From positions 69,362-133,361 of the forward strand of contig JAAXKQ010000015.1 in the NCBI GenBank assembly GCA_025612245.1: a DNA stretch of 64,000 nucleotides. Direction: 5' to 3'. Shown in pieces: positions 27,837 through 64,000 of this stretch (position 1 is the stretch's first letter; each line of letters begins with the position of its first letter). Made by a program: the position numbers and the translations under genes. The notes beneath the pieces were generated by a model. The model had not been told where the DNA came from, made no database searches, and saw only the letters and a list, made by a program, of their open reading frames with translations. Source of the DNA: Ignavibacteria bacterium (GTDB taxonomy: Bacteria; Bacteroidota; Ignavibacteria; Ignavibacteriales; SURF-24).

Positions 27837-28586
27837 ATGAAGGTAAAACCAATATCCATTTTAAAGTCTATTTGGTTTTTTGTGATTAGTTCGGCAATTA
27901 TCTATTCGGGTCTTTATTATGGAATACCGTTTTTACAATCAAATGGAATTCCTGTCTTTTTCGCTTATTTGATTGTGTTTCATATCCCCCTGTTTTTGCT
28001 AATAATTACTGCCCTCATCTTCTACCGGATTGAAGGCCATCCGATGAATTTGCAGGCATTCAAAGAACGGATCTGGCTGAGTAAAATGGATAAAAAGGAC
28101 TGGCTCTGGACTGCGGGGTTATTTACGCTCGGAATTTCGGCCTATCTGCTTTTAGCCCCCGCCGGAAAGTCATTGGCGCAAATTGGCTTTCTTGCTCCGC
28201 CCGATTTCTTCCCGGCTGAAATTAATCCGACTAAAATTCCCCGCGATGGATATATCATGGATTATAAACTATCTGGACAGTATTGGATCGCAATTATTTA
28301 TTTTATTGCAGTTGTTACAAATGTACTGGGAGAGGAGTTTTTATTCAGGGGCATGATTCTCAGGAGGCAAATTGTAAAATATGGCAACCGTGCATGGCTG
28401 TACCATGGTGTAATTTGGACCTTATGGCATTTTTTCTGGAAATGGAATTTAATCTCCATTCTGCCCTTCGGGTTAGCTCTTTCATACACAGTATACAAAA
28501 AACAAAATGTTCTAACCGGCATCATTGTCCATGGCTTGATGAACATGCTGCCGTTGGTTTTAATTATTATTGAAATTTTGAAATAA
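27837..28586 (+). CDS. CPBP family intramembrane glutamic endopeptidase (CAAX protease-like)
   Basis: EEFLFRG motif 1, later conserved His motifs (TLWHFFW, HGLMN), multi-TM. Confidence 0.8.
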   Translation: MKVKPISILKSIWFFVISSAIIYSGLYYGIPFLQSNGIPVFFAYLIVFHIPLFLLIITALIFYRIEGHPMNLQAFKERIWLSKMDKKDWLWTAGLFTLGISAYLLLAPAGKSLAQIGFLAPPDFFPAEINPTKIPRDGYIMDYKLSGQYWIAIIYFIAVVTNVLGEEFLFRGMILRRQIVKYGNRAWLYHGVIWTLWHFFWKWNLISILPFGLALSYTVYKKQNVLTGIIVHGLMNMLPLVLIIIEILK

Positions 28587-28726
28587 TTTTCCGGGAAATT
28601 CCAAGCAGCCGCAAAAAGGAATCTGGGGCTAAATCCCCAAAGAAAGGAGAGAAATCCCTGTGCCCCGGCCTAAAAGGCCGGGTACCCGGAAGCTCACTCA
28701 TCTAGACAATAATTCAGCCAGTAAAT

Positions 28727-28972
28727 CAAAAAACGTAAAAATCAGAACAACTTATATAATGCAATTACCAAGCCCCTTTTAGGGGGCTCCATGTCTTTAG
28801 CCCCAGGGAACGGATCCCCCACATTCCCCAGGCCCAATAAAATATCTGACCATCTGTAATCACGCACTAACACTAAGCCCGCTGTAGCGGGCGAGATGTC
28901 TATAGCCCGGGGTAACCAAATCACGAAAGGGATGCGGGACCCCCCGGGGACCTATAAGCGGTAGAAATTATC
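28727..28972. repeat. copy A of dispersed mosaic hairpin-module intergenic repeat (REP/BIME-like)
   Basis: About 85% identical by eye to 63594-63840. Modules of the form ...ccaag-[GC hairpin]-cg...tgtctttagccc, e.g. ccccttttaggggg and cccgctgtagcggg. Confidence 0.7.
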
Positions 28973-35267: not shown

Positions 35268-35815
35268 TGTCTTTAGCCCCCGGGAACCATGAATTCCCCT
35301 CATCCATAAAATCTAAACCAACAGAACAATGCATCACCCAAGCTCCGGAAGGAGCGCTTTGTCTGTAGAAAACACCGGTATCCCCCTAAATTCCAGAGCT
35401 CCGAATGGAGCGACTTTTATCTTACTTACTATTGGATAAATATATCATTGAACCATGACCCCACACACATAAAAACCATCCCGTCAAAACAACCGAGAAT
35501 TATCTTAAATATCCATTACACAAAACGCACAATCAGGGAAATGAAAAAGAACATGCAACCGCTATGGGCGGTAGGGAAAACTTCTTTTGTAACCATTTCT
35601 ACAAACATGCTACCGCTAAAGCGGTAGAAATCCCAACACATTTACACCCGACCACATTGCTTCCATTCATAATTCCTCTGTGCCGCTCCTGACCGGAGCT
35701 TTGTGTATTGTTGGTGGAATCCTTTTTCCCCGGGGTTCAGTCGCCCCCATCCGGGGGCTTCCTCACCCCGGGCTACTGATGTTACGCCCGCGCTGCGGGC
35801 TTAGTCATTCCATAA
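35268..35815. repeat. copy B of mosaic hairpin-module repeat, modules in both orientations
   Basis: 35268-35425 matches copy C forward (…aaatctaaaccaacagaacaa…caagctccggaaggagcgctttgtctgtagaaaa). 35765-35805 is the reverse complement of C 63705-63745 (ctaagcccgcagcgcgggcg…cagtagcc). Confidence 0.7.
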
Positions 35816-36100
35816 TTCCAAACTCCCAGCCTTCATGGTTGTTTCCTTCCCCCTCCACCTTTGCCTTTTCCTAAACCTAGAACCTTGAACTTTGAACCCT
35901 TTTCACACTTAAAACTCAAAACTTAAAATTATTCCCCCCACTTAAAAGAAAAGCCCATACATACGCATGGGCTTAAACGGAGAAAGTATTACTTCAAATA
36001 ATCTACTCACGAAACTATTTTACTAATTTCTTCTACTTTTACTTTTTCTACTCTTTCCTCTTTTAGTACTTCAAAAAGAAAAAAGTTCCAGCTTTTTTTT

Positions 36101-42327: not shown

Positions 42328-42368
42328 TTTCTTTATCCCGGTACAAACAAATGTTTAACATATTAACG

Positions 42369-42950
42369 CTACTCAATAAAATCTTTCAGCTTCTCGCGCA
42401 TTTTCCTGGTTGCAGTAAAAAGATATTTTTTAACCGTACCCTCGCCGCAGTTCATAACCCTGGCAATTTCACTTATTTTCATGTCCTGGAGGTGCTTAAG
42501 CGTAAAAACCATCTTCTGCTGCGGCGGCAGGCTGGCGAGTGCACCGTTAATGTTCTTTTTAATCTCTTCATCCATCAGTTCCTGATCTGCCGAAGGTCCC
42601 CCTTCAATCATATCCGAAAGCCTGAGTTCTGCCGGGTCATCTTCAATTTCAAAACTCTGGTCGATGGAAGCGTACTGGAATCTCTTGTTGCGCGCTTTGT
42701 ACGTAAGGCATACATTAACGGTAATTCTGAACAGCCACGTCGAAAATGCACTGTTACCCTCAAAATTTTTCAACCCCTTGTAGACCCTCATGAAAACCTC
42801 CTGGTAAATGTCCTTTGCATCCTCACTGCTGTGCCTGTAGGATGCGGCAATGGCAAGCACCTGACGGTCGTAACGCGCCACCAGAGCCTCAAATGCCTGC
42901 ATATTGCCGTTTACGGCTTCTTTTACTAAAAGGTTTTCTTCCTGATGCAT
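42369..42950 (-). CDS. ECF-type RNA polymerase sigma-70 family factor
   Basis: Region 2 (AKDIYQEVFMRVYKGL) and region 4 HTH (ISEIARVMNCGEGTVKKYL). Confidence 0.85.
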   Translation of the reverse strand: MHQEENLLVKEAVNGNMQAFEALVARYDRQVLAIAASYRHSSEDAKDIYQEVFMRVYKGLKNFEGNSAFSTWLFRITVNVCLTYKARNKRFQYASIDQSFEIEDDPAELRLSDMIEGGPSADQELMDEEIKKNINGALASLPPQQKMVFTLKHLQDMKISEIARVMNCGEGTVKKYLFTATRKMREKLKDFIE

Positions 42951-43026: not shown

Positions 43027-43128
43027 TAAATTAAAAATAGGAAGATGGGAAATTAAAAAGGAAAAATTAAAAAGGGAAGATTGGGAATTAAAAAGGAAAA
43101 ATTAAAAAGGGAAGATTAGAGAGGGAGG
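43027..43128. repeat. 35-bp A-tract-rich tandem repeat (about 2.5 units) in a divergent promoter region
   Basis: gaagatgggaaattaaaaaggaaaaattaaaaagg at 43041-75 and gaagattgggaattaaaaaggaaaaattaaaaagg at 43076-110, with partial units either side. Confidence 0.7.
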
Positions 43129-45374: not shown

Positions 45375-45517
45375 CCCTGCCCACAGTCTCCGGCACTCCC
45401 GGACAATGTATTTAGTATCATCCAGTCAGGCGGGCCCGTCCCGCCTGATCCAATCCCGCGTCCCTCTCTGCCATTAAAACTCCGGCTTTAATACTAATCA
45501 CTCTTCACTTTTCCCCT

Positions 45518-48501: not shown

Positions 48502-48556
48502 ACACTAAAGTAGAACTAAAAATCAAAAAGTGGAAGGATTTAGCAGCGAAAATATT

Positions 48557-48660
48557 AAGTTTTAAGTTTTAAGTTTTAGGTTATAATTTTTAATTTCCAA
48601 TTTCCAATTTCCAATTTTTAATTTTTAATTTTTAATTTTTAATTTTTAATTTTCCCCCCT
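48557..48660. repeat. cluster of AT-rich simple-sequence repeats upstream of the SBP gene
   Basis: (aagtttt)x3, (ttccaatt)x3, (tttttaat)x5, then C6. Confidence 0.8.
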
Positions 48661-49938: not shown

Positions 49939-50011
49939 GCACCCTTAGCTCAGCTGGTAGAGCATCTGACTCTTAATCAGCAGGTCGCCGGTTCGAATCC
50001 GGCAGGGTGCA
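49939..50011 (+). tRNA. tRNA-Lys (anticodon CTT)
   Basis: Manual cloverleaf. Acceptor gcaccct/agggtgc, D-stem gctc/gagc, anticodon loop cuCUUaa, T-arm gccgg-ttcgaat-ccggc. CCA is not encoded. Confidence 0.9.
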
Positions 50012-50015
50012 CTGC

Positions 50016-50050
50016 TAAAAGCTTCAGTTTCGCAAGAAACTCGAAGCTTT
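50016..50050 (+). terminator. terminator after tRNA-Lys
   Basis: aagcttcagtttcgcaagaaactcgaagcttttttt. Confidence 0.6.
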
Positions 50051-50173
50051 TTTTATTTTAAACCTGACTTTATTCATACTAACCCGGATCGTCTCCGTCA
50101 GCATAAATAAGCCTCCTCTCAATCCCATAAATACTAAGGCCCGCCATAAAGACAGGCCCTAATGAACCTTTTT

Positions 50174-52072
50174 TTAATTTAAGCTTACCTGCGTACCCGC
50201 CTCTTCGGCAGGAGCTTCACCGCTTGGTCCGGCTTCAGCTCCTTTCGGCAGCTTATCCTTTATAATCATCGCAAGAAGAGTATTCACAAGCGAGTTTCCA
50301 TCTGCTCCGCTTCCGCTGCCTCCGGCTACAATGTCCGGAACAAGCTTAAATCCGCTCGTGGCTAGCGCCTTTGCTACTTCTATTGCCGCATAGTTGCCCG
50401 ATTCCATCGACTTTATCTTCATCGTTATAACGTCAGCTTCAGCCGTACCAACAGCCTTGATCTTATCTCCCTCGGCAGCACCTACGGTCTTTAATACCAT
50501 TGCATCTGCTTCGGCATTGATCTTCTTCGATTCTGCCGTACCGCCTGCACTCTTTACAGCCGCCTGCGCTTCAAATTCGCTGATCTGCACTTTACGTTCC
50601 GCATCAACTACCCTCGCCTGCGTATCGGCAAGTGCCCTTGCCTGCTGAAGCTCCTTGCGCGTATCTTCCGCAAGCCGCTGTGTATCGTAAGTAACTTTCT
50701 CCTGCTCCGCTATCTTGCGGTCCGTTAGCGTCTTCATGAGCTCTTCCGGCGGCACTATGTCGCCTATTAAAGTATCAACTGCGCCAACGTTATAATCCTG
50801 CAGCGCTCTTGATATGCTCTGCCTTGCGTCATCCTGACGCTCCTTACGGCCTTTGAGGAATTCAATTACATCAGACCCCTGTGCCGTATTGCGGAAGTAA
50901 TTGCCAATTGTGGGCTCAAGCACCTGCGTAACCAGATTCGCCACGCTTCCGAAACGCGCAATTACCTTCGGGGCATCGGTGCTTGGAATGTGTATAATCT
51001 GACTTACGTCAAGACTGAATGTAAAGCCGTCGGAGGAGCGGACTTTAATTGTTGAGAGCTTTTCATCAAGCTTGTGCGATTCGGTTTTGCCGGTAGCCCA
51101 GTTGAGTACTACGTTCGCTGTAGGCACAATCTCTACTTTATGAGTATATGGATTAATAGGATACTTTCCCGGATCAAGCGGCTTAACCCAAACACCCTTC
51201 TGTCCCCTGCTTACAAGATTTCCATGCTTGAATGTTTCACCCGTAACGTCCACTCCCATATCGCCCACATAGGCAATTACAACGCCCACGTTTGCAATAG
51301 GTACGGTAGTCATTTCTTTGATTTCTACTGTTGCAAATCTTGGATTGATGTAATAACGCCCGGCCAGAATCACCTGCTCCTGAAGTCCCTTGTAGCCGCC
51401 GTTATCGAGGAATATCTGCCCGTCCTGGAAGCTGTTATGCCCGGGTATTTCACGGCCTGCAATTTCTCCGGTCTGCAGCGGCAGGCCTTCGCGTGTAGTA
51501 ACAATGCCCACCATATTGTCATCAATTTCAAGCGCCGCTTCTTCAACAACAGTGAATAGTGAAGTATTGATGCGGTAAGTACCCGGCGGAATAATGGTAA
51601 TTTGCGGACCGCGTTCGCCTCCGTTAAGAAGGAAGTCGCGTGCGCTCTGGAATGAATCGCAGTTCACCTTCTTGGCAAGCACGCGTCCGTCCTTAAGAGG
51701 ATGACCGTCCCTTGCCTCAACGATGCCGATATTGCCTTCTTTGATGTTGATGAATTTCTGTTTGGTAACTTCATACTGCCAGGGCCAGAGCCAGAAATGG
51801 AGCCCCGGCGCAAGAGTATCTGCCTGGTAGCCGGCCTCGCCATTCAGTGCTATAATAGCCCCGTCGGGGAGCATGCGGTGTTTGCCCAGAAGTACGAACT
51901 TTTTATTAACAATGCCTATTGAGTCTTCAGGAATAATAACAATTCCGAAGAATCGTAAAATCAATTTGTTGGCTACTATGAGAAGAATAATAACTATAAT
52001 CCACCAGTAGCTGCCCAGGAAATTTGCCAGTCCCACGTTGCGGCTCCTATAATTGTGATAAAAATACGACAT
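50174..52072 (-). CDS. flotillin family (SPFH/band-7) membrane protein
   Basis: N-terminal TM, SPFH domain, C-terminal Ala/Glu-rich coiled-coil flotillin repeats. 632 aa. Confidence 0.8.
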   Translation of the reverse strand: MSYFYHNYRSRNVGLANFLGSYWWIIVIILLIVANKLILRFFGIVIIPEDSIGIVNKKFVLLGKHRMLPDGAIIALNGEAGYQADTLAPGLHFWLWPWQYEVTKQKFINIKEGNIGIVEARDGHPLKDGRVLAKKVNCDSFQSARDFLLNGGERGPQITIIPPGTYRINTSLFTVVEEAALEIDDNMVGIVTTREGLPLQTGEIAGREIPGHNSFQDGQIFLDNGGYKGLQEQVILAGRYYINPRFATVEIKEMTTVPIANVGVVIAYVGDMGVDVTGETFKHGNLVSRGQKGVWVKPLDPGKYPINPYTHKVEIVPTANVVLNWATGKTESHKLDEKLSTIKVRSSDGFTFSLDVSQIIHIPSTDAPKVIARFGSVANLVTQVLEPTIGNYFRNTAQGSDVIEFLKGRKERQDDARQSISRALQDYNVGAVDTLIGDIVPPEELMKTLTDRKIAEQEKVTYDTQRLAEDTRKELQQARALADTQARVVDAERKVQISEFEAQAAVKSAGGTAESKKINAEADAMVLKTVGAAEGDKIKAVGTAEADVITMKIKSMESGNYAAIEVAKALATSGFKLVPDIVAGGSGSGADGNSLVNTLLAMIIKDKLPKGAEAGPSGEAPAEEAGTQVSLN

Positions 52073-52467
52073 AGAAACTAGATAATTCCCCGTTAATTAG
52101 CAAAGGACTAAAACTTTTCCAATTCCTTCTCTCTGGCTCTTGGTTCTGTGAAAGCTTCACATGAAGGAATTCTAATAGCCTGATATTCGTCTCCGGCATA
52201 TTTTGAGTCGAAAAGCCAGGGGAGCATTCCCGCCGGGTCGTTCAATAAGTAAGGCAATAATGCCCCCAGACTTTTCAATTGCATCAATTGCTTAATATGG
52301 GTATTTATACCCTTTCAGGTATAGTTTAGGTTAATTATCTTGTTTTATACCTTATTGGGTATAATTTTTGCAAAAACACTTGATATTATACCCGAGGTGT
52401 TCAGCCGAAACTTTCTCTTGAAATTGAAAGAGCAGGAAAGGATAGACATAATAAAAGGTTTACAATA

Positions 52468-53172
52468 GTGGGCCTTTGGGGCAATTTCATTTTAAAGCCT
52501 CCAATGGAGGAATATTTTCAGATGCCGGAAATTGAAGATCTGACAATGCATCTGTCTGAGATGTTAAAAATCAGAACAGCTGAGCATACGTTAATACGCC
52601 TTAATTCCGGTGAGCTTGCTTATTTATCAAAACGCTTCGACCGAACCGCAAAAAATAAACTTCAGCTTAAGGATATGGCACAGCTTACCGGTACTCTTAC
52701 AGAACGTAAATACAAAAGTTCCATGGGAAAAATCGGCAAAACAATACTTAAATATTCAAGCTATCCGAAATTTGACCTCCTGACATTTTTCGAACTCACG
52801 GTGTTTTCTTTTCTGACGGGAAACGCAGATATGCACCTGAAGAACTTTTCTCTTCTTACAAACAACGAAGACGAGGTAATGCTTTCTCCAGCTTATGACC
52901 TGCTTTCAACAAAGCTCCTTATTCCGGAAGATACAGAAGAAATGGCTCTTACGTTAAACGAAAAGAAAAGCAATCTTAAGAGAAGGGATTTTGACACGTT
53001 TGCTGAATCACTTCAGATAAACAGCACGTCTGTAAACAACTCATACCGGAAGTTTTTTAGCAGTGAACCTATGATACTTGAGTTTATCGATAAAAGTTTT
53101 TTACAGCCAGAACTCAAAGAGGCTTATAAAAAGCTCTATTCAGAAAAGATTGAAAAACTTAAAAATCAGTGA
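52468..53172 (+). pseudogene. 5'-truncated HipA-like Ser/Thr kinase toxin gene (C-terminal catalytic half only)
   Basis: AYLSKRFDR, DMHLKNFSLL and SPAYDLLS are collinear with E. coli HipA RFDRR / DGHAKNFS / PFYDIIS. The upstream GAQEK P-loop region is absent. Operator-like palindromes sit upstream. Confidence 0.55.
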
Positions 53173-53610
53173 TAAATTGGTAGTATCTAGAATTTAGTGT
53201 AAATGATTTATAATTCAATCCCGGAACGTAGCCCCGAGGGGCGGACAGCGGAGGGATTAAATTTACAGCGACTCTGGAAGTTAACCAGAGGAATTAATAA
53301 ATTAAATCATCTACAAGGAAGAGAGATTATCTCTCTTCTCTATACAGCTTCCCATGCAAGATTATTGAGCAGGTGGTTCATTTTGACTAGGCCCTCAAGT
53401 TCAAGGTCCTTACTCATTATAAGATTATGCATCTGGGCTATAGCATTGGAATTTGACAGCTCGTATTCAAGATTAGATTCTGAGTCATCAACTACTTTAC
53501 AGGCTTTTCTAATGTACTTCTATGCTTTTCAAAGAAAGCTTTAGCTGAAATTACTTCCTTCTTGTCATTCGGCAGTCAAACACCTCCTTAAGACCAGCAA
53601 GATAATATCC

Positions 53611-53997
53611 TCAGTAATAAATAAGATCCTCGTCTTTTTCATCGAACTTCAGGATATTGCTGAAATAGCTTGAGATGCTATTCTTCATAATAACAGGGTC
53701 CTTGGGCTTTACTAATATAAAGTAGTAGCCCGTTTTTTCTTCTTCATATTCTGACCATTTGCTTATTTCTCTAAAACCACTACAATCAATCAATTGTTAG
53801 TCACTGTTACCTATCCAATAATACCCATGACTGTCTTTTGATGCAATAACCATCCAATGTTCTTCATTCTCAACCCTTGCGATGATAGGATAGCCTGTTT
53901 CCAAAGTTTTGCCTATTGCCATCTTGACTTTGGCTTCCTCTTTAATATCACATACCACCGATTCAAGGTCGAACTTGTTTAAGACACGACGAATCAC
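53611..53997 (-). pseudogene. disrupted ORF remnant (two adjacent same-strand fragments separated by a stop)
   Basis: Track ORFs 53797-53997 and 53611-53793 share a strand and are adjacent. Motifs GYPIIARV...HWMVIASKD...NSD are faintly papain/C39_2-like. Confidence 0.25.
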
Positions 53998-54334
53998 ACC
54001 CGCAGATGTACCATATTTTTTGTGACACTTGCGGCCCTATGGCCCATTTCGGAACTTATCGGAAAGCCTAATACAAGTGCTAAGTGTAAAATGGCGTACT
54101 CCCAGCAATCGCCATAGACTTCCTGGTACTTAAACCATACTAGTTCCCTTCGCTTTTAAGTAAGCGGATTAGTTTTTTAATCATTTCATTTACTCCGATT
54201 AGTGATTATAAGGATTTGCCGGGCTTTCCTTTTACTGACATTCTACTTATCCCACTTTTATCCACAGAGAAAATGAAGTAATATACCAGTACTTTTATAA
54301 AATTTTATGGAGTGGACTTCATAATGATGTTAAT

Positions 54335-54367
54335 CTAAAAATAAAAGGGAGATATACTCCCTTTTAT
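54335..54367. terminator. hairpin terminator at the 3' end of the OLD gene
   Basis: aaaagggagatatactcccttttattta. Confidence 0.5.
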
Positions 54368-56263
54368 TTAGCTCTCAATCTCTGCCTTGACAGTATTAAT
54401 AACCATCGGACGCTGCACAAATTCATTAACTCTTCTTAATATATTACGAAGTTCATCCTGAGGATCCCTAATACTGAGAAGTTCTGGAGTCATGTGCTTA
54501 ACTGCCAAAGCATTAAGCCACTTCTTGCATGCAGATTCTTTTTTCTTTTTATTCTCATCATCTAAGCTATCCCATGAATTTGGTGAATCGCTATTTTCCA
54601 ATAGCTTTTGTGCAGCCATTATTGGAACATCATCAAAATCTCCAAACGCAATAACAACTTCTGGCCGAACCCTTTGAACGGCTGTAGGATGAAGGTAGTT
54701 TTCAATCTCTAACTTGGATAAAATATATGCTTCACAGTTGTCTCTGAGATTAGTTTCATCGGCATTTTTTTTGTATTTGGGTTCTTTAGGAGGTATAGTA
54801 TCCCTGTCATAAATATGAATTTCGGGACGATTAAAGCCTTTCAGCCTACTGGTCCAAAGAGCCAGATTAGATCCCCCAAATGGAATGAATATTACAGAAC
54901 CAGCATTTTCCAGATCTTCAAGGTTAGGTATGTCTGGTTCTGTTTGCGCAAGTACCTTAGATATCTCCTTAAAAAAGTTTATATCATTTGGCCCTTCAAC
55001 GCATAAAAACAACTTAACATCATGATCAGCTAATATCCCAAGATCTTTAATTATTCTTTTAATTGTTTCATCATCATCTTTGTGCAGTATTCGCTTCTTA
55101 TCTGCTGTTTTTTCAATATATCTTATGGAGGAAGATGGTATTAAGCGGGCTAATGTAGGCGTGTGTGTAGATATTATCACCTGGCAGTTAGAATTATGGA
55201 CCAATTCAAACAAAGATTCAAGCAACATAACTTGGTTTGTCGGATGCTGAGAGGTTTCTGGTTCTTCAATCGCATATATAATACCTGGCGAATTCCGCTC
55301 GATAGCCTGTTGTTCTGCCTTAGCCCTAAAAAAGTTAATTAAAATTAATCTTCTGACACCACTACCTCGCTTGTTGACAGGGACCTGTGTTTCATCAGTC
55401 AAACTTACCTTAAATATCTTGTCCCATGCAGAATCCAATACTTTCGGGTTTAACTCACTTGCCAGATCTGGATCCATTTCCTTTAATTTGTCAACCGTTG
55501 CCTTACTTACCTTTTCAACTTTCTCCTTAACATTTTGTATAATTTTATCAAGATCGTGCCTTTGGCTTTCCAAAGCTTCTTTGATTGCGACCTTCATAGG
55601 GTCCTGCGCTTCATTGTCCTGGTCTGTGCTTTCTCTATCAGATTTAAACAATGCAAATAAGGGCATTTCTGATTTAATTTTATCCCACATTCTTTTCTGA
55701 TCTTCATCTTTATCTTTTAATTGTATTCGTTGTTCGGCCAATTCAAGATCTGGAAATGAACTCCATATTTTTTGTCTTATCTCGGCCTTAATTGTTTCCT
55801 TAACATCATCAAGACTTACCCCAATATCCTTTGCCCTTTTTCTTAGCTGTGTAATTGTTAGTTGATATAAATCATTGGCATTATCGATGCTAGGATGCAG
55901 AGAATTGAGATAGACTTCCTTTGGCTTTGGTTTTCCACCAGTATATACTTTCACAACTACTAAATTCCCATTTGAATTTAGTAAATACTCATCCTTAAGA
56001 TCTACTACATTTGTTGCATCAATTATTAATGTTTGCGGCACTTCAGTAAATTCACAAGTGATAGTTATATCATCAGAGGCGGAACCAACGCTGATATCGC
56101 CTTGATCCAAAGAGGTATCATTAAAGAATACATTCATTGCATCTAAAATGGCCGACTTACCCGAATCATTCTTAGCAATTAAAGTCGTAAAGTCGTCAAA
56201 CTCAATTTTGAATTTTTCTTTGTAGCATCTGAAGTTTTCAATGGTTAAGGAAACCAGTTTCAT
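54368..56263 (-). CDS. OLD-family ATP-dependent endonuclease (ABC-type ATPase + C-terminal Toprim), standalone class-1-like
   Basis: N-terminal IENFRCY...KNDSGKS Walker A of AAA_15/21 OLD ATPases. IEEPETSQHP signature-like motif. C-terminal Toprim with CVEGPND and YDRD. Confidence 0.8.
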   Translation of the reverse strand: MKLVSLTIENFRCYKEKFKIEFDDFTTLIAKNDSGKSAILDAMNVFFNDTSLDQGDISVGSASDDITITCEFTEVPQTLIIDATNVVDLKDEYLLNSNGNLVVVKVYTGGKPKPKEVYLNSLHPSIDNANDLYQLTITQLRKRAKDIGVSLDDVKETIKAEIRQKIWSSFPDLELAEQRIQLKDKDEDQKRMWDKIKSEMPLFALFKSDRESTDQDNEAQDPMKVAIKEALESQRHDLDKIIQNVKEKVEKVSKATVDKLKEMDPDLASELNPKVLDSAWDKIFKVSLTDETQVPVNKRGSGVRRLILINFFRAKAEQQAIERNSPGIIYAIEEPETSQHPTNQVMLLESLFELVHNSNCQVIISTHTPTLARLIPSSSIRYIEKTADKKRILHKDDDETIKRIIKDLGILADHDVKLFLCVEGPNDINFFKEISKVLAQTEPDIPNLEDLENAGSVIFIPFGGSNLALWTSRLKGFNRPEIHIYDRDTIPPKEPKYKKNADETNLRDNCEAYILSKLEIENYLHPTAVQRVRPEVVIAFGDFDDVPIMAAQKLLENSDSPNSWDSLDDENKKKKESACKKWLNALAVKHMTPELLSIRDPQDELRNILRRVNEFVQRPMVINTVKAEIES

Positions 56264-56464
56264 ATTGACTCCCAGAATAGTATGACAAATGAGTTAATAG
56301 TGAACTATATTCGTGTTCGTTTTTAAGCCATTGTTTTAGAGAATGAATGGAATCACTAAGGAATCAGAATATATAGTAGGAAAAGACAGGCCTTGTTCAT
56401 GGTGTCAGAGTATTTTTTAGATCGGCAGTTAAATTAATATTTATTTTAATGTTAAACAAATTAA

Positions 56465-56492
56465 TCGCCGGTTCGAATCCGGCAGGGTGCAC
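56465..56492 (+). repeat. attR-like direct repeat: copy of the 3' 28 nt of tRNA-Lys
   Basis: Identical to 49985-50012 and followed by a related terminator hairpin. Confidence 0.8.
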
Positions 56493-56874
56493 CAGAAAGC
56501 TTCCGTTCCGCAAGAATTTCGAAGCTTTTTATTTTTATCCTGCGCCGTAGAATTAGATAAGCCCCTTACAACTGCCATGAAATGGCCTTTTATGGAAAAA
56601 CCAATGATGATTAACCTGGGGGCATTTTAATCCTTTCTGATACCCTTTATTGCCATGCTTTTTAAATGCCTCGTGCAATGTGGCGTTGAATCGCCCCAAT
56701 TTTTATGATTATACTTTCCTTATCTTACCTTTTGGCATTTAATTATTATTATCTAAATTTGGGAACAAAAATTCTCCATATGCGTTTTTGTTTCCTTAAA
56801 GATAAGTGACAGATCAGAACCTATTAAACTCTTGGCAACACATATAAAACGCGGCTATATAATTGAGGTTAATA

Positions 56875-57720
56875 ATGATTGTAGGTAAAACAATTCAGAT
56901 ATTTCTTCCTGACGCTAACCCCAGAAGCGTTAAAATTGCAGAAATAACCAGCCGGACCGTTCAGGCGATACTAATCCCAAGAACAAAACTGGATTATATT
57001 TTTGCAAGGGAAGAATTGAATAATGTTGGGGTGTATCTCCTCATTGGAAACCCCGATGAAGACGTAAAACCTTTATTATATATTGGCGAGGCAGAAGATT
57101 GCAAAATCCGGCTTAAACAGCATAATGCTTCAAAAGACTTTTGGAATTACGCAATTGCAATAATCTCCAAAACTCACTACTTCACAAAAACCCACATTAA
57201 ATTTCTTGAATCATTCATGTATCAGGAAGCTAAAAGAATTAACAGATATAAACTGGAAAACAGCACTAATCCCACAATGCCTTATGTATCGGAATCCATG
57301 ACGGCAGATTTAATGGATAACTTTGATACGATAAAAATTCTGGTTTCAACGCTTGGGTTTCCGGTATTTGATGAAATAAAAACAGAACAGAAAGCCGATT
57401 TACTTTACTGTAAAGGCAAAGACGCACATGCAACCGGCCAGCTGACCGATGAAGGCTTCTTGGTATTTTCCGGGTCAAAATGCAACCTGAAGGAAGCAAA
57501 TACCCTTCCCCCATGGGCCACAAAAATGCGCAGGAGACTGATTGAAGAAAAAATATTGCAAGTAAAAGATACCGTGATCGAATTTGCTTCGGACCATCTG
57601 TTTGATTCCCCAAGCGCCGCGGCCACCGCCGTTTTAGCGAGAAATGCAAATGGATGGATAGAATGGAGATATAAGAACAGAAAAACTCTGGATGAAGTAA
57701 AAAGGCAGATTAAAGTATAA
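56875..57720 (+). CDS. GIY-YIG nuclease domain protein with C-terminal DUF4357-like domain
   Basis: GVYLLIGN...LLYIGEAEDCKIRLKQH...N matches GIY-(10)-YIG...R...H..N spacing. C-terminal NGWIEWRY motif. AT-rich like the adjacent island. Confidence 0.65.
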   Translation: MIVGKTIQIFLPDANPRSVKIAEITSRTVQAILIPRTKLDYIFAREELNNVGVYLLIGNPDEDVKPLLYIGEAEDCKIRLKQHNASKDFWNYAIAIISKTHYFTKTHIKFLESFMYQEAKRINRYKLENSTNPTMPYVSESMTADLMDNFDTIKILVSTLGFPVFDEIKTEQKADLLYCKGKDAHATGQLTDEGFLVFSGSKCNLKEANTLPPWATKMRRRLIEEKILQVKDTVIEFASDHLFDSPSAAATAVLARNANGWIEWRYKNRKTLDEVKRQIKV

Positions 57721-57949
57721 AAGGGGACTCGTTTACCCTCCTTGCCCCCTGCTTCTTTATTACAGTAATTTTTAGCCTAAACACGGTAATATTTGCCTTC
57801 AAACGGTAATCCTAACTGCCGTTCCTTACCCCATATTCATTCCGTGCCATGCATAATTTTCAGCAAAAACTTTTTTATGCCTCATCGGGTATAATAACGG
57901 TTCTGCCGCTTCTCCTTGCCTCCAACCGGAGCCCTCCTGCCCCCTTCCT

Positions 57950-60325
57950 CTATTTGCACCGTATTACCATAATCGTTACGTCATCTTCCAACTGCGCTTC
58001 CCCTGCCCAGGAACGACTCTTACTGCATATGTATTCTATTATCTCCCCTGCCGGCTTCTCAGCCGATTCCCTGAAGGCTTCTGCCGCCCTCTCCATCCCA
58101 AATGTCTCCTTGCTTTCATTGAACATCTCAATTAAACCGTCACTCATAACCAGTATCACGTCACCATGGCATAATTCAGCCGTAAGTTTTTTGTACGGAA
58201 AATCATTGAACGCCCCGAGAGGCATCCCCTTTACCAGTAACTCCTCAACCTCGCCCGTTTGCTTCCTGTAAATCTGCATCGGCGGCATCCCGGCCGATAC
58301 ATACTCAATTTTATTTCCATCTATCCTTAATAACGACATGCACATCGTCAGCATGTACAGGTTCATCTGCTTTATTGACCGGTTGAATGAATTCATTATC
58401 TCAATCAGGCTTTCCTTATGAGCCAGAGTGTTGAATAACCCCTTTGCCAGAATTACCATGTTCCCTGCTTTCAGGCCGTGCCCCGTTGCATCCCCGATAA
58501 CCGCCGTAAGACGCCTGTTTTCTCCCGCGTGAAAATCGTAATAATCGCCTCCTACTTCTGTTGCCGTCTTCATGTAACAGGCAATCTCCAGGTTCTCTGC
58601 CTGAGGCACATCCCGCGGTAGCAGCGATAACTGCAGTTCCCGCGCCGCATCTAGCTCTTTTGTCTTTCGCTGGCTCTCTGCTTCAATCAGCCTCCTCTCA
58701 ATCTCAAGCGACGCGGCAACCCTCTCCTGCTCAATTGCTTTTTCCGATAAATCCTTCACTTTCTCAAGCTGCCACTCCAGGTCTTTATTGATCGTTGCAA
58801 AATTATATGACAGGTACAGCGACATCGCTATTACAAAACCTATCATTCCGTAAACATATACCTGCTGAAGCCCGAAGACGTCCATTATCGAAAAGTCCAC
58901 CAATAGCTGCAGTATAATGGAAACGCTCATTACCAAAAAGCCGGGTATAATTATCCAGGTACCTCTGTGGCATATCTTGTCCTTCCTGAACCCCGCATAA
59001 AACCCTTCAATGAGCGTAAAGGAAAACTGAAAATAAATAAAGTACGATGTTACACTCGGGGAAATGTCCAAAAATCCCGACACGGAAACCGCAATGTATA
59101 GCGCCAGGTACAGGACCCACCTTTTGGGAAGTCTCTCGTAGTTGAAGGAATATAGCGTAAGTACTGCAAAAAAGATGGCCGTGGAGGCCGATAATACGTT
59201 CAGCCGCTGAAGAAATACCATCATTGCGGCGTCTTCAATCATGAAGCGCTCATAGTTGAAATACGTCAACCCCGCAAAGCCTAAAAGGCATATTGCATAG
59301 TAAAGGTTCTGCTTCTGCCTCCTGAAAAAGAAAAAAAGAGATAGATGCAGAAAGGATAATATTAACGGTATAAGAGTAAATACCATCTGGTGAATTGTAT
59401 ATGGCCGCAGCGCTTCAGTTGAATTGAATGCTGAGTTAAGGTCAATGAGCAGAATTGAAAACCCGGCATCAAACCCCTGATTCCTCTGCGTGGCTGCTTC
59501 ATAGTTTGCATACCTGACCGCAATTACCTGCTCTTCTTTGGGATCGAATGTAAATTCCATCCAGTTGTTTTTGGGAGCGGGTGAGTACCCGGAGTCCTTT
59601 GGCGCAACTTTCCCGAATTTTTTAAGCAGCCGCCCGTTGTAATAAACTTCCGACGCCCCAAACTGCGTCAGCTTAAACCCTACGGCCTTATTCCACAGCG
59701 CCTTGTCCACGTGCAGGCGTGCCCTGAACCATCCGGTATTCTTCCAGTTCAGATCATAGTAATTCTCGCTTACAAAGTTGGAGGAGGCGGTTTTCCAAAG
59801 ACTGTCATTCAGGTCCGCCCGGGCCCACTCGGCGTTATCTCCCTCGTGGTACTTCCAGTTATTTACAAACCTTATCCCGCTCTGGGCCCCGTATATGTAC
59901 TCCGGCGTTACATTTCTTGCACCTACGTATTTTCCCCAGTTACTTATCTTTATTATAACCGTGGTATCTTTCCTAACCTTCAGCCTGGCGTTATCCAGTA
60001 TCCAGCCGTCGGCGTTGAGCGCTTCCGAGTTCCAGCTTCCAAGCGTAAGCTTAAACTCCAGGCTCTCGCCTTCTTTGAACTGAAGAGTTTTTGTCCATAC
60101 CGAATCCGACTGCCTCTCAAGCCTTACGGCAGCGGGGTTCCATTTCCCAAGCCCGGTGCTGCTGCCCGTAAGAAAGACGTCATCCGAACGCAACGCTTTT
60201 TGGGAAATTACCTTAAAGCTTACCAGCTTCTTTTGTCCGGAAGGTACACTGCATCCGGCGCTGAACAGACAGACACAAAATAAAGCTGTAAGGCAAAACT
60301 TAAATTTCCTGCGGAATACAAACAT
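57950..60325 (-). CDS. 7TMR-DISM sensor with N-terminal CBM20-like module and C-terminal PP2C/SpoIIE-type serine phosphatase
   Basis: Signal peptide, starch-binding-like beta-sandwich, 7TMR-DISMED2-like extracellular domain, 7 TM helices, coiled coil. PP2C motifs GDYYDF, DATGHG and MSDGL. Confidence 0.75.
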   Translation of the reverse strand: MFVFRRKFKFCLTALFCVCLFSAGCSVPSGQKKLVSFKVISQKALRSDDVFLTGSSTGLGKWNPAAVRLERQSDSVWTKTLQFKEGESLEFKLTLGSWNSEALNADGWILDNARLKVRKDTTVIIKISNWGKYVGARNVTPEYIYGAQSGIRFVNNWKYHEGDNAEWARADLNDSLWKTASSNFVSENYYDLNWKNTGWFRARLHVDKALWNKAVGFKLTQFGASEVYYNGRLLKKFGKVAPKDSGYSPAPKNNWMEFTFDPKEEQVIAVRYANYEAATQRNQGFDAGFSILLIDLNSAFNSTEALRPYTIHQMVFTLIPLILSFLHLSLFFFFRRQKQNLYYAICLLGFAGLTYFNYERFMIEDAAMMVFLQRLNVLSASTAIFFAVLTLYSFNYERLPKRWVLYLALYIAVSVSGFLDISPSVTSYFIYFQFSFTLIEGFYAGFRKDKICHRGTWIIIPGFLVMSVSIILQLLVDFSIMDVFGLQQVYVYGMIGFVIAMSLYLSYNFATINKDLEWQLEKVKDLSEKAIEQERVAASLEIERRLIEAESQRKTKELDAARELQLSLLPRDVPQAENLEIACYMKTATEVGGDYYDFHAGENRRLTAVIGDATGHGLKAGNMVILAKGLFNTLAHKESLIEIMNSFNRSIKQMNLYMLTMCMSLLRIDGNKIEYVSAGMPPMQIYRKQTGEVEELLVKGMPLGAFNDFPYKKLTAELCHGDVILVMSDGLIEMFNESKETFGMERAAEAFRESAEKPAGEIIEYICSKSRSWAGEAQLEDDVTIMVIRCK

Positions 60326-60570
60326 AGACTTTGTCCTTTACATTTGTCCCGTAAATTCTTTTAAGCGCAATTATACCTATGCCTAAAATAGTCAATTTCC
60401 GCGTGAAACAGAAAAACACTTAGTAATGCCTGGACATAAAGAAATTCCAGGTTTATTTATTTACTGCTTTTATTTCTCCTGTTTTCATGCCATATTGAAA
60501 AAAGCTGAAACTTTTGAATGCAGAAGATGTTTAACACAAAACAGGTATTTTTCTGAAAGGAACTGGTTTA

Positions 60571-60921
60571 ATGCTCAGGAAGAACGAAAAGAATAAAAAG
60601 ATATTTGCCTCAATATTTCTGTTGAGCTACATGTCTTTTATTTTATTGAGCATCACTCACTTCCATTCCTCCGGGCTCAATAACCCATATAAAGCAATTC
60701 AATTTACCGGCGCGTCATCATCTAAAACTGTAATTGATTCTGAGAATGACTGCCCCGTGTGCCACCTGTTCGCAAGCGTAAATTTCAGCCCCGCACAGAC
60801 CTTCGTTGTGCATGGGCTCAAGGCCGAAAGCAAAATTAGCCTCGCCGATGAAACCGGCCTTCAAACCGTATTTGGTAATTCACAATGCCTCCGGGCTCCC
60901 CCGTCTTTAATTTCTCTTTAA
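60571..60921 (+). CDS. small membrane protein with a single CxxCH motif (hypothetical)
   Basis: N-terminal TM, then CPVCH. Located upstream of the TonB-dependent receptor. Confidence 0.3.
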   Translation: MLRKNEKNKKIFASIFLLSYMSFILLSITHFHSSGLNNPYKAIQFTGASSSKTVIDSENDCPVCHLFASVNFSPAQTFVVHGLKAESKISLADETGLQTVFGNSQCLRAPPSLISL

Positions 60922-61072
60922 CATTACTCTCAATCAGATCCCAAAGGATTGTTTTACCAGCCTGCCTTTGGCGCAATGCTAAATTGTGCCTTAAAAGTAC
61001 GGGTAGTGTAGGGTACATCATATCCTTTGCGCGGATCTGCTTTTTACCAATTATAAATAAAAGGAAATTAAG

Positions 61073-63505
61073 ATGGATATACCCGAACTTTATAACAGGA
61101 AACCTGTATGCAATTGGAGAAATTTTATTGTTCCTTCAGTGCATCACATAATTCTTTTTACCATACTATTACTTTTGCTCCTTCATGTTAAATTATCTGC
61201 CGGAACCGTTTCCAGGGGGAATGACCCATCAGCAGATGGAACAATAAATTTTACGGTTACCGTGCTCGATAAAGCCACACTTGCTCCGCTGCAGAATGTG
61301 GTCGTCGTTCTGAGTGAAGGCGCTTCAGTTGTTGCCTCCTCTTCAACAAATCCTTTCGGAAAGGCCGCTTTCAACGACCTCCAAAGCGGCACGTACCTCC
61401 TGTCTGCCCATTACGTGGGGTATCACGATTTTAACGATACCGTTCTTGTCGACCCGGGGCATAAAAGCTATGGAGTCATGCTTTCCGAAAAAACTTTACT
61501 TGCCGGCGAGGTTGTAGTCACGGGTGAGAAACTCCGCAGCACCGCTACCTCAATCGACATAACCGCGGGCCGCCAGGTCTTTGCAGGGGAAACTTACCAT
61601 GCATCCCCTGCCGGAACAATGACACAGCTTATCCAGCAGAACTTGTCCGGTGCGGTTAAAGCGCCAACTGGCGAAGTGCACATTAGAGGCATGCACGGCG
61701 AGTATACATACCTTGTCGACGGCATCCCCATCCCGCTTGGCGTTTTCGGCGGATTGAATGAAATAGTCGACCCGAAGGTTATCTCTAAAATCACTTTCTA
61801 TACGGGCGGGTTTCCTGCCGAATACGGCGGCCAGCTTGCGGGACTGATGGATATTCAGAACAAGGTGCCCACGGGATTGTTCCACATGGACTTTTCTACC
61901 TTCCTGGGCAGTTACCTCAATTCAAATTACGCGTCCCCCGGAAATGATCGGGGCGGCTCCGGAAATATTAACTCAAACGGTCAGGCCCTTTCTTTAAGCA
62001 ACCATGCCGGCAAACTTGGCTATTTTATCGGAGCTTCCAGGCAGGAAACAGACCGCAGGATCGACCAGCCTTCGGAACAGATATTTCACGACCACGGGTT
62101 CGATTACTTCACATACGGTAAATTCGATTACCTGCTGGACAGCCGCAATTACATTACAATGAACCTTAATTACAGCAAAACCCAGACGCAGATCCCTTAT
62201 AACCCCGCCGAAGGAATTCTGCTCGATCAACAGGGCTCTTATAACGCTTTTCAGACACTCTCTTACTACCGCGTCATTTCCGGTGAACCCGATAACGAAA
62301 CAAACCTCTTCATCGGGGGCTTCCTGCGCGAGGGGGGACTGAACTTTACCCCCGGCATTAACGACTTCAATAAAACTTACCTTAACGGCGATTCAACCAA
62401 CGGCTACGTGGTAAGTCAGAATAGAACGTTTACAACCCTGGGCATCAGGGCAAAATACGACGAACGCCTTTCTCACCATTTCAAGTATGCCTTTGGCTTT
62501 AACTATGGCAATACCTCAGGCAAAGAGGATTTCAGGTTCTTTAACGCCTCCGGCAGCAGCCTTCTTAATAATACCACTTACCATGGCTTCGATGCCGGAG
62601 CTTTTGCAGAAACTGAATGGCATCCGTATGAATGGACAAGAATTGACCTCGGGATCAGGTACGACGTTCATAATGTCCCGTCCCTGCCCGATCAGTCTCA
62701 GCTCTCCCCGCGACTAAAGTGGAGCTTTTTCCTAGATGAATTCAACAGCATATCTTTAAGCTACGACAGGCTCTTTATGCCTACTAACATAGAGAACCTT
62801 GGCACCGTGGCATCTTTGCTGGGTAACAATGCCGCCCCCACACTGCCCGAAAAAGATAACCTGTACGAAATTGCATTTCTCAGGAACTGGCAGAACGGCT
62901 TTAATACCAAAATCTCCGGCTTCTATAAAACGGCTTCCCCGGGACTTGATGATCAAACCCTGGGCGCAAGCACAATCAGGGTGAACGTAAACATCGCAAA
63001 CGTTAAATCAACCGGAATTGAATTTTCACTTACTTATAGCAATCCCGCAACCCCATTTTCAGGATACATCAACGCCTCGCTCATCCATGCTTACGGCCGC
63101 GGCCCCGTCTCGGGAGGTTTTCTGCCCGCTGACCCGTCCATCGAACCCTTCGACCTGGATCACGACGAGCGCTTGTCGTCTGTATTCGTAATTAATTATC
63201 AGCCTGCTAATTTCTTCCTCAGCCTCAGCGCCAACTACGCTTCGGGACTTGCCAATGGCAATGAGGATTATTCCTTTAAGACCGGACTATTTGATTTCAA
63301 CCAGGGAGGTCACACCACACCCGCCTGGATACTGGACCTTTCGGGCGGCTATACATTTAATCTCTCACACGGACAGTCGATTGAACCTTCAATTTATGTT
63401 ACAAACTTGCTGGACCACACGCACCTTCTTAAAGGAGCCTTCTTCAGCGGCGCCAGCTATGAAGAAAGAAGAAACATTGTATTCAGGCTTGCCTATCATC
63501 TTTAG
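61073..63505 (+). CDS. TonB-dependent outer-membrane receptor with N-terminal carboxypeptidase-regulatory-like domain
   Basis: Signal peptide, CarbopepD_reg-like beta-sandwich, plug domain (VVTGEKLRSTATSIDI), 22-strand barrel ending in an aromatic residue. Confidence 0.85.
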   Translation: MDIPELYNRKPVCNWRNFIVPSVHHIILFTILLLLLLHVKLSAGTVSRGNDPSADGTINFTVTVLDKATLAPLQNVVVVLSEGASVVASSSTNPFGKAAFNDLQSGTYLLSAHYVGYHDFNDTVLVDPGHKSYGVMLSEKTLLAGEVVVTGEKLRSTATSIDITAGRQVFAGETYHASPAGTMTQLIQQNLSGAVKAPTGEVHIRGMHGEYTYLVDGIPIPLGVFGGLNEIVDPKVISKITFYTGGFPAEYGGQLAGLMDIQNKVPTGLFHMDFSTFLGSYLNSNYASPGNDRGGSGNINSNGQALSLSNHAGKLGYFIGASRQETDRRIDQPSEQIFHDHGFDYFTYGKFDYLLDSRNYITMNLNYSKTQTQIPYNPAEGILLDQQGSYNAFQTLSYYRVISGEPDNETNLFIGGFLREGGLNFTPGINDFNKTYLNGDSTNGYVVSQNRTFTTLGIRAKYDERLSHHFKYAFGFNYGNTSGKEDFRFFNASGSSLLNNTTYHGFDAGAFAETEWHPYEWTRIDLGIRYDVHNVPSLPDQSQLSPRLKWSFFLDEFNSISLSYDRLFMPTNIENLGTVASLLGNNAAPTLPEKDNLYEIAFLRNWQNGFNTKISGFYKTASPGLDDQTLGASTIRVNVNIANVKSTGIEFSLTYSNPATPFSGYINASLIHAYGRGPVSGGFLPADPSIEPFDLDHDERLSSVFVINYQPANFFLSLSANYASGLANGNEDYSFKTGLFDFNQGGHTTPAWILDLSGGYTFNLSHGQSIEPSIYVTNLLDHTHLLKGAFFSGASYEERRNIVFRLAYHL

Positions 63506-63593
63506 ATAGGCTCGCCTTATTCTTATCCCTTCCACCGGGGAGATGCAGTTTATACACAATTTGGTACCGGTTCGGTACCCGTAGCCCGTAATT

Positions 63594-64000
63594 CAAAAAC
63601 GTAAAATGCAGAACACCATACATAACGCAATTACCAAGCCCCTTTTGAGGGGCGCCATGTCTTTAGCCCAATAAAACAAATCCCCCCACATTCCCCAGTC
63701 CCCATAAAATTTCTGACCATCTATAATCACGCAATAACTAAGCCCGCAGCGCGGGCGAAACATCAGTAGCCGGGGGTGACCAAATCCCGATAGGGATGCG
63801 GGAACCCCCGGGAACCATGAAATCCCCACGCTCATAAAATCTAAACCAACAGAACAACGCTTCCCCCAAGCTCCGGGGGCGAATAATCCCACAACCATCT
63901 CTACGATATCTGAACCAATATAATCACGCATCTTCCAAGCTCCGGAGGAGCGCTTTGTCTGTAGAAAAAAACGAATAAAAAAAAGAATCAGAGCTCCGGA
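63594..64000. repeat. copy C of mosaic hairpin-module repeat (truncated by window end)
   Basis: Collinear with copy A for about 245 bp, then extends with modules shared with copy B. Confidence 0.7.

Follow-up and report, generated by a model that had tools for sequence, protein, structure and literature searches.

A mosaic cluster of hairpin repeats at the edge of an Ignavibacteria sequence window, probably of REP type and linked to a Y1 HUH gene

The 64,000-nt stretch analysed here (the window; positions 69,362 to 133,361 of contig JAAXKQ010000015.1, assembly GCA_025612245.1, from an Ignavibacteria bacterium) ends inside a repeat, copy C, that lies just downstream of a TonB-dependent-receptor-like gene and has two relatives in the same window, copies A and B. 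The part in view, 63583-64000, is a repeat beyond chance. We consider it probable that copy C is the start of a mosaic cluster of about 1.5 kb, composed of repetitive extragenic palindromic (REP)-type elements in the manner of bacterial interspersed mosaic elements (BIMEs) and served by a cognate Y1 gene. The REP likeness proposed in the initial annotation is backed by a Y1 HUH gene that the contig also carries, with copies of these hairpins on either side.

The repeat at the window edge and its continuation

Both strings quoted in the initial annotation were located (aaatctaaaccaacagaacaa at 63837, caagctccggaggagcgctttgtctgtagaaaa at 63936), and blastn against the window agrees that copy C is the longest of the three copies and contains an A-like part followed by B-like parts. 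Its stretch 63583-63816 matches copy A at 28716-28952 (83% over 238 nt, E 1e-63). The beginning of copy B (35277-35348) corresponds to 63805-63876 (89%), and from 63908 on copy C follows copy B from 35311 on at 85-87%. The start first given, 63594, lies in genuine repeat, with homology setting in slightly earlier, at about 63583. A module of ~69 nt is duplicated in tandem (63839-63879 versus 63908-63948, 78%), and a partial inverted copy is found at 35726-35817. That the repeat runs to the window edge is evident from position 64000, which splits a hairpin between AGAGCTCCGGA and AGGAGCGAC.

The basic unit is an A-GCYCC/GGRGC-G hairpin with a G+C-rich stem of 5-6 bp (AAGC-YCC-loop-GGR-GCG), followed in full-tail units, after 3-4 nt, by TGTYTRTAG and in short-tail units only by (A/T)TGT. 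Units are 26-31 nt long and all intergenic; as an oligonucleotide the hairpin unit reads AAGCTCCGGAGGAGCGCTTTGTCTGTAG and its short-tail form AGAGCTCCGGAAGGAGCGACTTGT. Together with a CA-rich leader (…ATCTGAACCA…TAATCACGCA…), the A-A-GCYCC-loop-GGRGC-G hairpin, the 3-4 nt and TGTCTNTAG make up a module of ~65-70 nt, of which three stem versions occur (GCCCC/GGGGC, GCCCGC/GCGGGC and GCTCC/GGAGC). The pattern AAGCYC-N4-10-GRGCG-N2-4-TGTCTNTAG is present 4 times in the window and 0.00 times in shuffles, a relaxed hairpin detector finds 10 units against 0.2, and all six TGTCTNTAG sites of the 64 kb lie inside the three repeat regions (1.2 expected). The DNA fold of the repeat region is more stable than that of shuffles (z -2.8).

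The contigs of two assemblies (L001, L002) stop within the copy C repeat, the former adding 119 nt past the window that are still collinear with copy B. A longer extension was obtained by a protein search with the receptor, of which a shorter-start version (P0001) lies on a 575-kb Joint Genome Institute (JGI) contig: locus L211, taken from this contig (Ga0395530_000002, 575,362 nt), is 100% identical to window 51262-64000 (12,739 nt), and window-equivalent coordinates are L211 coordinates plus 51261. The initial annotation had allowed for a larger element beyond the edge, such as the end of an rRNA operon or a prophage; what follows 64000 is an intergenic spacer. It measures 1,741 nt from the receptor gene to a PAS/response-regulator gene, which is followed by a methyl-accepting chemotaxis protein (MCP) gene and a histidine kinase gene, and copy C occupies most of it. 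The cluster ends near window-equivalent 65050, the window holding its first quarter, and comprises about 13-14 hairpin units in both orientations (Table 1). Since an A-like part is followed by a B-like part and then by more units, copy C is a mosaic rather than a single two-ended element. The earlier expectation of a discrete element with termini and a target-site duplication is not borne out: copy C is assembled from many small units, and blocks of such units recur among A, B and C in the manner of BIMEs.

Table 1. Coordinates of the repeat copies, their units and associated features. Positions are those of the window unless a locus is named; w.e., window-equivalent.
Feature	Coordinates	Strand	Basis or remark
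TonB-dependent-receptor-like gene, 810 aa; 3' end precedes copy C	61073..63505	+	Pfam CarboxypepD_reg, CarbopepD_reg_2, Plug; homologues named TonB-dependent receptor
Gene-end hairpin GGTACCG-GTT-CGGTACC, 7 bp; repeat begins 4 nt later	63563..63579	+	hairpin scan; absent from copies A and B
Visible part of copy C: five hairpin modules, first ~420 nt of cluster	63583..64000	+	blastn to A/B, extension
REP unit C1, AAGCCCC-TTTTGA-GGGGCG cca TGTCTTTAG, full tail	63636..63666	+	pattern scans; hairpin in DNA fold
REP unit C2, AAGCCCGC-AGC-GCGGGCG aaaca TCAGTAG, variant tail	63740..63769	+	hairpin scans; inverted copies at 35773-35800 and in extension
Long nested hairpin CCGGGGG-TGACCAA-[ATCCC-GATA-GGGAT]-GCGGGAA-CCCCCGG, after C2	63770..63811	+	DNA fold
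Degenerate REP unit C3, AAGCTCCGGGGGCG, decayed stem, no tail	63868..63881	+	hairpin scans; module is tandem duplicate of following (C4) module
REP unit C4, AAGCTCC-GGA-GGAGCG ctt TGTCTGTAG, full tail	63937..63964	+	pattern scans; 88% match to REPs flanking Y1 gene in L212
REP unit C5, left half, short-tail unit sequence AGAGCTCC-GGAA-GGAGCGAC-TTGT, cut by edge	63990..64000	+	extension; 63989-64014 is 96% identical to L212 3879-3904, the REP nearest the Y1 start codon
Copy A	28716..28952	+	full-tail units 28770-28800, 28875-28905; long hairpin 28906-28949
Copy B	35277..35938	both	collinear with w.e. 63805-64546 of copy C, 87% over 648 nt
Copy B, plus units	35340-35368, 35395-35418	+	
Copy B, minus units	35558-35572, 35599-35627	-	
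Copy B, complete three-hairpin element	35678-35829	-	
Copy B, 7-nt periodic tract	35840-35930		
Extension: five units	w.e. 63636-64010	+	L211 hairpin inventory
Extension: two units	w.e. 64154-64235	-	L211 hairpin inventory
Extension: one complete three-hairpin element	w.e. 64278-64411	-	L211 hairpin inventory
Extension: 7-nt periodic CTTGAAC tracts between three-hairpin element and next plus-strand pair			L211 layout
Extension: full-tail + short-tail pair	w.e. 64653-64725	+	L211 hairpin inventory
Extension: three units with tail TTGTTTGTAG	w.e. 64768-64915	-	L211 hairpin inventory
Extension: further CTTGAAC tracts	to ~65020 w.e.		L211 layout
REP array upstream of Y1 gene	L212 3270-3905	+	ends with CAGAGCTCCGGCAGGAGCGACTTGT, 95 nt before ATG
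Two REP units directly downstream of Y1 gene	L212 4519-4600	-	
Further REP array past Y1 gene	L212 4740-5130	+	broken by assembly gap
Array loci in other genomes	L023 2173-2466; L038 5732-6021; L054 5414-5594; L098 1642-1780; L067 3859-4120		

The placement of the copies is as first described, copy C lying directly 3' of the TonB-type receptor gene and copy A 3' of a CPBP protease gene (27837-28586), an assignment with which its Rce1/CPBP-type domain agrees. From this placement a terminator-proximal insertion had been proposed, of which the position stands: all three copies adjoin gene-end hairpins (63563-63579, 28664-28682 and 35951-35974, the last belonging to the minus-strand gene 36101-38761 beside copy B). 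The insertion itself we infer. In L214, the nearest upstream-syntenic relative (73% protein identity), there is no cluster at the orthologous site and the downstream gene also differs, so that the missing cluster is suggestive only of an empty site; L216 and L217 are not syntenic with the copy C site.

In Ignavibacteriales the units also combine into a three-hairpin element of ~150 nt, made of a full-tail hairpin, a long nested hairpin (CCCGGGG-…-CCCCGGG) and a short-tail hairpin, with a CA-rich leader that in relatives reads GAGCATCTNGAATNNCGCA…. RNAalifold on 14 copies from 4+ genomes recovers three helices, with compensatory changes in 6 of 24 pairs, four of them in the long hairpin, the homologue of 63770-63811 in copy C. 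SMAG_U6937 contains a facing pair of these elements, an inverted doublet of ~400 nt (L043 3695-4095). Across 139 non-identical instances of the unit the Y/R stem position covaries (CG 71, TA 57, CA 6, TG 5; Fisher p 9e-26, a value that takes no account of relatedness among the instances), the next inner pair being C-G in 129 of them.

Several further features lie within the cluster or resemble its parts. A spurious-looking open reading frame (ORF) of 112 aa (63593-63931, minus strand) is contained entirely in the repeat and has no Pfam match, and two more on the minus strand of L211 (12332-12778 and 13363-13764) lie inside the cluster and are called as genes publicly, without a precomputed Pfam hit. 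ORFs inside the cluster span 112-148 aa and are almost certainly spurious; none of 80 aa or more is listed within copy A. CTTGAAC-like 7-nt tracts accompany minus-strand units, in copy B as in L211 (13150-13385 and 13640-13760), and AAATTAA/TTAATTT-like tracts occur at 43028-43118 and 48555-48653, inverted and in two spacers 5.5 kb apart. Such tracts could act as upstream elements or as sites of DNA bending, or they could belong to a further repeat class that accompanies the cluster. Isolated hairpins that partly fit the unit, one tailless (53230-53243, AGCCCCGAGGGGCG) and two with weak tails (45389-45415 and 54346-54371), are probably unrelated gene-end hairpins outside the family count.

A Y1 HUH gene flanked by the same units

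A scan of one genome per GTDB species with AAGCYC-N5-8-GRGCG-NNN-TGTCTNTAG, a pattern for which several tens of chance matches are estimated in 596 Gb, returned at least 118 loci. All-against-all clustering of the ORFs around 118 motif loci brought out one small family, recurring in six loci labelled as several phyla, that encodes a protein of ~150 aa with HUH and Tyr motifs; no large ORF family stood out, the large clusters not being followed up. The family is recognised by Pfam as Y1_Tnp (PF01797, E 1e-25; 90 and 79 bits in the relatives scanned), and among NCBIfam models it scores above the cutoff for IS200/IS605 transposase and far below that for REP_Tyr_transpos. By tblastn neither a Y1 gene nor a remnant of one was found in the 64-kb window, including the 260-nt "core" of copy B, which consists of two minus-strand units.

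A search with the protein of L015 led to P0127 (67% identity), encoded at 119748-120218 of Ga0395530_000002, that is on the contig that extends the window and ~77 kb from copy C (record 41408-42876). P0127 has 156 aa, the motifs DHVH, WQ and YIQNQEEHH and a precomputed Pfam Y1_Tnp match, and reaches 80.3 bits against NF033573 transpos_IS200 (cutoff 55). Its best PDB matches are the TnpA proteins of ISDra2, IS200 and IS608, and the E. coli REP-associated tyrosine transposase (RAYT) 4ER8 is not among its PDB matches at E <= 0.01. It occurs on 4 contigs, two of which represent one locus in different assemblies, the other two being reported as similar. The gene sits between inverted unit arrays whose tails point at it (L212; Table 1), and the units of copy C match these flanks at 85-96%. 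The downstream array of L212 contains a scaffold gap (4952-5052), and the spacer measures 938 nt there (~100 N) and 783 nt in L213; this array may be incompletely assembled or polymorphic in length.

The same geometry recurs elsewhere. In L015 (Ignavibacteriales) the Y1 gene (2065-2613, minus strand) lies between a plus element (hairpin 1823-1850) and a minus element (2778-2805), and in L095 (Chitinophagales) it is flanked in the same way. A profile of five Y1 proteins retrieved 80 metagenomic loci at ~50% identity, most of which show by eye an outer hairpin followed by NN-CTGTTT(A/G)TAG and, after ~25-30 nt, an inner hairpin followed by CTGT that adjoins the start or stop codon, both sides being inverted with the tails toward the gene. 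The TGTCTNTAG of the window is a variant of this commoner TGTTTRTAG. With a strict detector (perfect stem of at least 5 bp, tail within 0-5 nt), plus-orientation motifs were found upstream in 41 of 75 loci, minus-orientation motifs downstream in 35 of 71 and both in 21 of 66, an enrichment of ~70-fold beside Y1 genes over the background of 0.0076 motifs per 250 nt per strand elsewhere in the same loci. The hosts of Y1 genes with repeats include Ignavibacteriales, Chitinophagales and Bacteroidales, along with one contig labelled Acidimicrobiia and one bin labelled Syntrophomonadaceae, the latter label being probably wrong.

The hairpin-plus-tail core is multi-copy in at least five phyla, with Ignavibacteriales, Blastocatellia, Poribacteria, Verrucomicrobiota and Bacteroidota among the labels. 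The matches listed cluster by genome and share flanks within a genome (Blastocatellia MFD01916, SMAG_U8901; Ignavibacteriales SMAG_U6937; several Poribacteria; Limisphaerales; Saprospiraceae; Cytophagales; Bacteroidales/Bacteroidaceae); among them, relatives have more than 14 loci per genome and tandem arrays with a period of 52-54 nt are frequent. The genome studied here has, in the portion inspected, three clusters in 64 kb, the rest of copy C and the arrays at the Y1 locus. Head-to-tail arrays with a period of 51-54 nt and identical inter-unit segments, some with assembly gaps, were also observed in Bacteroidaceae, Saprospiraceae and Bacteroidales. The Ignavibacteriales-type three-hairpin element is carried by the bins JBLNAZ01 "Syntrophomonadaceae MAG164" (L021, L053, L079, L103, L108) and JBLMYS01 "Acidobacteriota MAG223" (L062, L064, L085-L088), the former also encoding P0004, a 71%-identical orthologue of the window receptor; for both, the taxonomic labels are probably wrong or the bins mixed.

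Comparison with known systems and competing explanations

REP sequences and their RAYTs are the classic example of a transposase that has been domesticated and is accompanied by a population of non-autonomous repeats. Such systems have so far been linked to class-2 Y1 proteins and a 5' GTAG, for the most part in Proteobacteria and Cyanobacteria. REPs, BIMEs and REPINs are well characterised along with their Y1 partners: the families known to date, among them the GTAG-REPs of E. coli, Pseudomonas and Stenotrophomonas, have GT[AG]G or CGTC at the foot of the hairpin on its 5' side, are arranged in dimers and clusters, and flank the RAYT genes (PMC3733652, PMC6006769). The units described here are likewise short extragenic hairpins rich in G+C that carry an unpaired, conserved tag. 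They are dispersed, probably in many copies per genome, and often lie 3' of genes, and they occur as singles, inverted doublets, tandem reiterations and mosaic clusters, as do REPs and BIMEs. A low-copy Y1 HUH gene between inverted arrays of the same hairpins is the arrangement of a REPtron. In some respects the units depart from the canonical families: their stems have only 5-6 bp, unlike those of GTAG-REPs, head-to-tail arrays are common whereas head-to-tail dimers are rare in GTAG families (PMC3733652), and the core is shared between phyla, in contrast to canonical REPs, which are described as species-specific (PMC6006769).

Several observations weigh against a REP-type cluster with its own Y1 gene. 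The tag is a 9-10 nt 3' tail, (Y)TGTYTRTAG, placed 3-4 nt after the stem, and not the 5' GT[AG]G of GTAG-REPs; the 5' flank of the units is only (A)A or AG, and the 3' tag NNN-TGTYTRTAG ends in GTAG or ATAG. The Y1 protein is of class 1, unlike the class-2 RAYT/TnpA-REP proteins with their Y---NP motif, which P0127 lacks; against NF047646 REP_Tyr_transpos it scores 33.7 bits (cutoff 80). About half of the metagenomic Y1 loci are without a motif under the strict detector, and the genome-wide copy number is extrapolated from the ~95 kb of this genome that were inspected. Copies A, B and C differ by 11-17%, which means that the duplications are not recent and that the units are only putatively mobile today. 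A REP-type cluster also gives no account of its CA-rich leaders or of its 7-nt periodic tracts.

By analogy with the TnpA proteins of IS608 and ISDra2 and with E. coli TnpA-REP, the Y1 protein would bind the hairpin in single-stranded DNA, for example at a replication fork, and would cut and rejoin at the tail found at a fixed distance, so moving or copying units in trans. Mobilisation of the units by this protein is what we infer from that analogy, and a cleavage site at the tail is a guess. Clusters may then grow through tandem duplication and recombination between units, which would account for the module repeated in tandem at 63839-63948 and for the mosaic of blocks that the three copies share. 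The cluster, lying as it does just behind gene-end hairpins, probably forms part of the transcript as a 3' untranslated region (UTR), and it may secondarily stabilise or terminate transcripts. A sigma-70 promoter scan of 63300-64000 found no sites, and the terminator-like matches are the REP stems.

Quentin, Siguier, Chandler and Fichant (2018) describe a Y1 subclass 1.2, mainly in Cyanobacteria and Bacteroidetes, that is marked by DH[IV]H, WQ and YIKNQKEHH (Y---Q--HH), a median of 148 aa, low copy number and a specific C-terminal domain, and that is listed as "REP: no" and as generally without terminal secondary structures (PMC6006769). P0127 and its homologues share DH[IV]H, WQ, Y---Q--HH, a length of ~150 aa, low copy number and closest similarity to IS200 TnpA, and their alignment A1 has a conserved C-terminal block EEY..L..F....Y.F. 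P0127 is therefore a match to subclass 1.2 by the published signature, not by the authors' hidden Markov model. The dispersed hairpin-plus-tail repeats that flank these genes are a departure from the published description and not a reason to deny membership. The REP descriptor of those authors requires a 5' GT[AG]G and stems of 7-20 nt (PMC6006769) and would have missed 5-6 bp stems with a 3' tail. Class 3 Y1 proteins of Acidobacteria (Solibacter usitatus) also combine an IS200-like Y motif with Q and atypical, genome-repeated flanking hairpins, but differ in having NHVH, Y----Q, ~178 aa and a 5' CnGA tag (PMC6006769). No later paper tying subclass 1.2 to repeats was found in the searchable literature, where literal motif strings returned primer coincidences only and where this version of the system, with its 3' tail, a subclass reported as repeat-free and a cross-phylum core, was not described. 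We see even chances that the hairpin-plus-(Y)TGTYTRTAG units, with a core conserved across at least five phyla, are the missing cognate repeats of this "orphan" subclass, a REPtron-like system that would have arisen on the IS200 side independently of the RAYTs.

Having a Y1 HUH enzyme, the system also resembles the IS200/IS605 family (IS608, ISDra2) and its non-autonomous palindrome-associated transposable elements (PATEs). In this family the subterminal hairpins are recognised as single-stranded DNA, and at the right end of IS608 a short conserved motif follows the hairpin on its 3' side at constant spacing; the hairpin with its fixed-distance 3' tail looks like such an end at the sequence level. 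The units might be PATE-like miniature elements whose left end is a full-tail hairpin and whose right end is a short-tail hairpin ~25-120 nt further downstream. Such a unit would leave as a single-stranded circle and re-insert at a short target, by true transposition and not by processing of the REP kind. The Y1 protein scores above the IS200/IS605 cutoff with ISDra2, IS200 and IS608 TnpA as its closest solved relatives, the two hairpins of a unit lie on one strand as do the IS608 ends, and near-identical long copies that break contigs in SMAG_U6937 suggest recent spread. We nonetheless regard this as unlikely, since the Y1 gene is low-copy, without identical gene copies or tnpB, and is never enclosed by a same-strand full-tail/short-tail pair but by inverted arrays, since A, B and C yield no common target or clean boundary, and since tandem arrays with a period of 52-54 nt are unexpected from cut-and-paste. 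It is less likely again that the cluster is primarily an RNA feature, a long structured 3' UTR or a small-RNA array whose members would serve as stabilisers, terminators or protein-binding hairpins, under transcript selection and with a Y1 link that is secondary. All three copies lie directly 3' of genes, stems are conserved with compensatory changes, the fold is stable relative to shuffles, and canonical REPs do act on mRNA stability and termination (PMC3733652, PMC6006769). Both orientations nevertheless occur within one spacer, the orthologous 3' region of the relative has no cluster, and the enrichment of inverted units at Y1 genes has no RNA-level rationale. At the covarying pair G-T (5) is not commoner than C-A (6), which gives no sign of wobble tolerance, and Rfam at gathering thresholds and at E <= 10 (window, repeat regions and ten related loci) returned only one tRNA and sub-threshold noise.

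That the three copies are what is left of a non-coding segment duplicated or recombined in the ordinary way, with no dedicated enzyme and a likeness to the Y1 flanks through shared ancestry alone, we hold to be very improbable. Long collinear blocks (238-648 nt) at only 83-89% identity do fit old duplications better than recent insertion of single units, but the 28-nt core is conserved across phyla in many copies per genome, it flanks Y1 genes in a fixed geometry on many unrelated contigs, and every block is made up in turn of the one small unit, in both orientations. Practically no weight is left for the repeat being the margin of some larger element of a known kind. Two assemblies do have contigs that stop within the repeat, as is often the case at rRNA operons and prophages, and one weak CRISPR-DR28 match (20 bits, E 0.55) lies in it below threshold. 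The extension, with its spacer and the signalling genes beyond, refutes this, and its content together with the Rfam scan, which gives no rRNA or other match in the repeat, excludes an rRNA operon, a prophage, an array of clustered regularly interspaced short palindromic repeats (CRISPR) and an integron cassette array. As to CRISPR traits, the inter-hairpin segments, which would be the "spacers", are themselves repeated, and neither cas nor integrase genes lie nearby. A phage origin was likewise rejected, as the ten matches in viral contigs are single and at chance level.

A possible tRNA-Lys island in the window and the meaning of the repeat

Elsewhere in the window, the last 28 nt of a tRNA-Lys(CTT) gene (49939-50012) and its terminator hairpin are repeated at ~56465-56536, where ARAGORN calls an overlapping pseudo-tRNA (56410-56494). 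The ~6.5 kb between the tRNA and its repeated end encode a Band_7 protein (632 aa), a HipA_C-like protein and an AAA_15/AAA_21 ATPase (631 aa), and no integrase was seen in this island. The region 49939-56536 resembles an island that integrated at the tRNA and has since decayed, and it may be of the defence or toxin type.

For the genome at hand, the repeat cluster accounts for three large non-coding spacers and for contig breaks, and it flags the called ORFs named above, in the window and in L211, as spurious. If the link to the Y1 protein is true, there would be a second REP/RAYT-like system, based on an IS200-like subclass published as repeat-free and open to the study of convergent domestication, with a 28-nt core recognisable from Ignavibacteriales to Poribacteria. 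Such conservation across phyla would mean that the contact between protein and DNA is under strong constraint, and a function for the host would be possible as well. The system would moreover offer a simple substrate for a new HUH enzyme, consisting of one oligonucleotide and one 156-aa protein, and a search pattern with which thousands of environmental intergenic repeats could be annotated. Taken together, the main value of the finding lies in the link that it draws between an "orphan" Y1 subclass and repeats.

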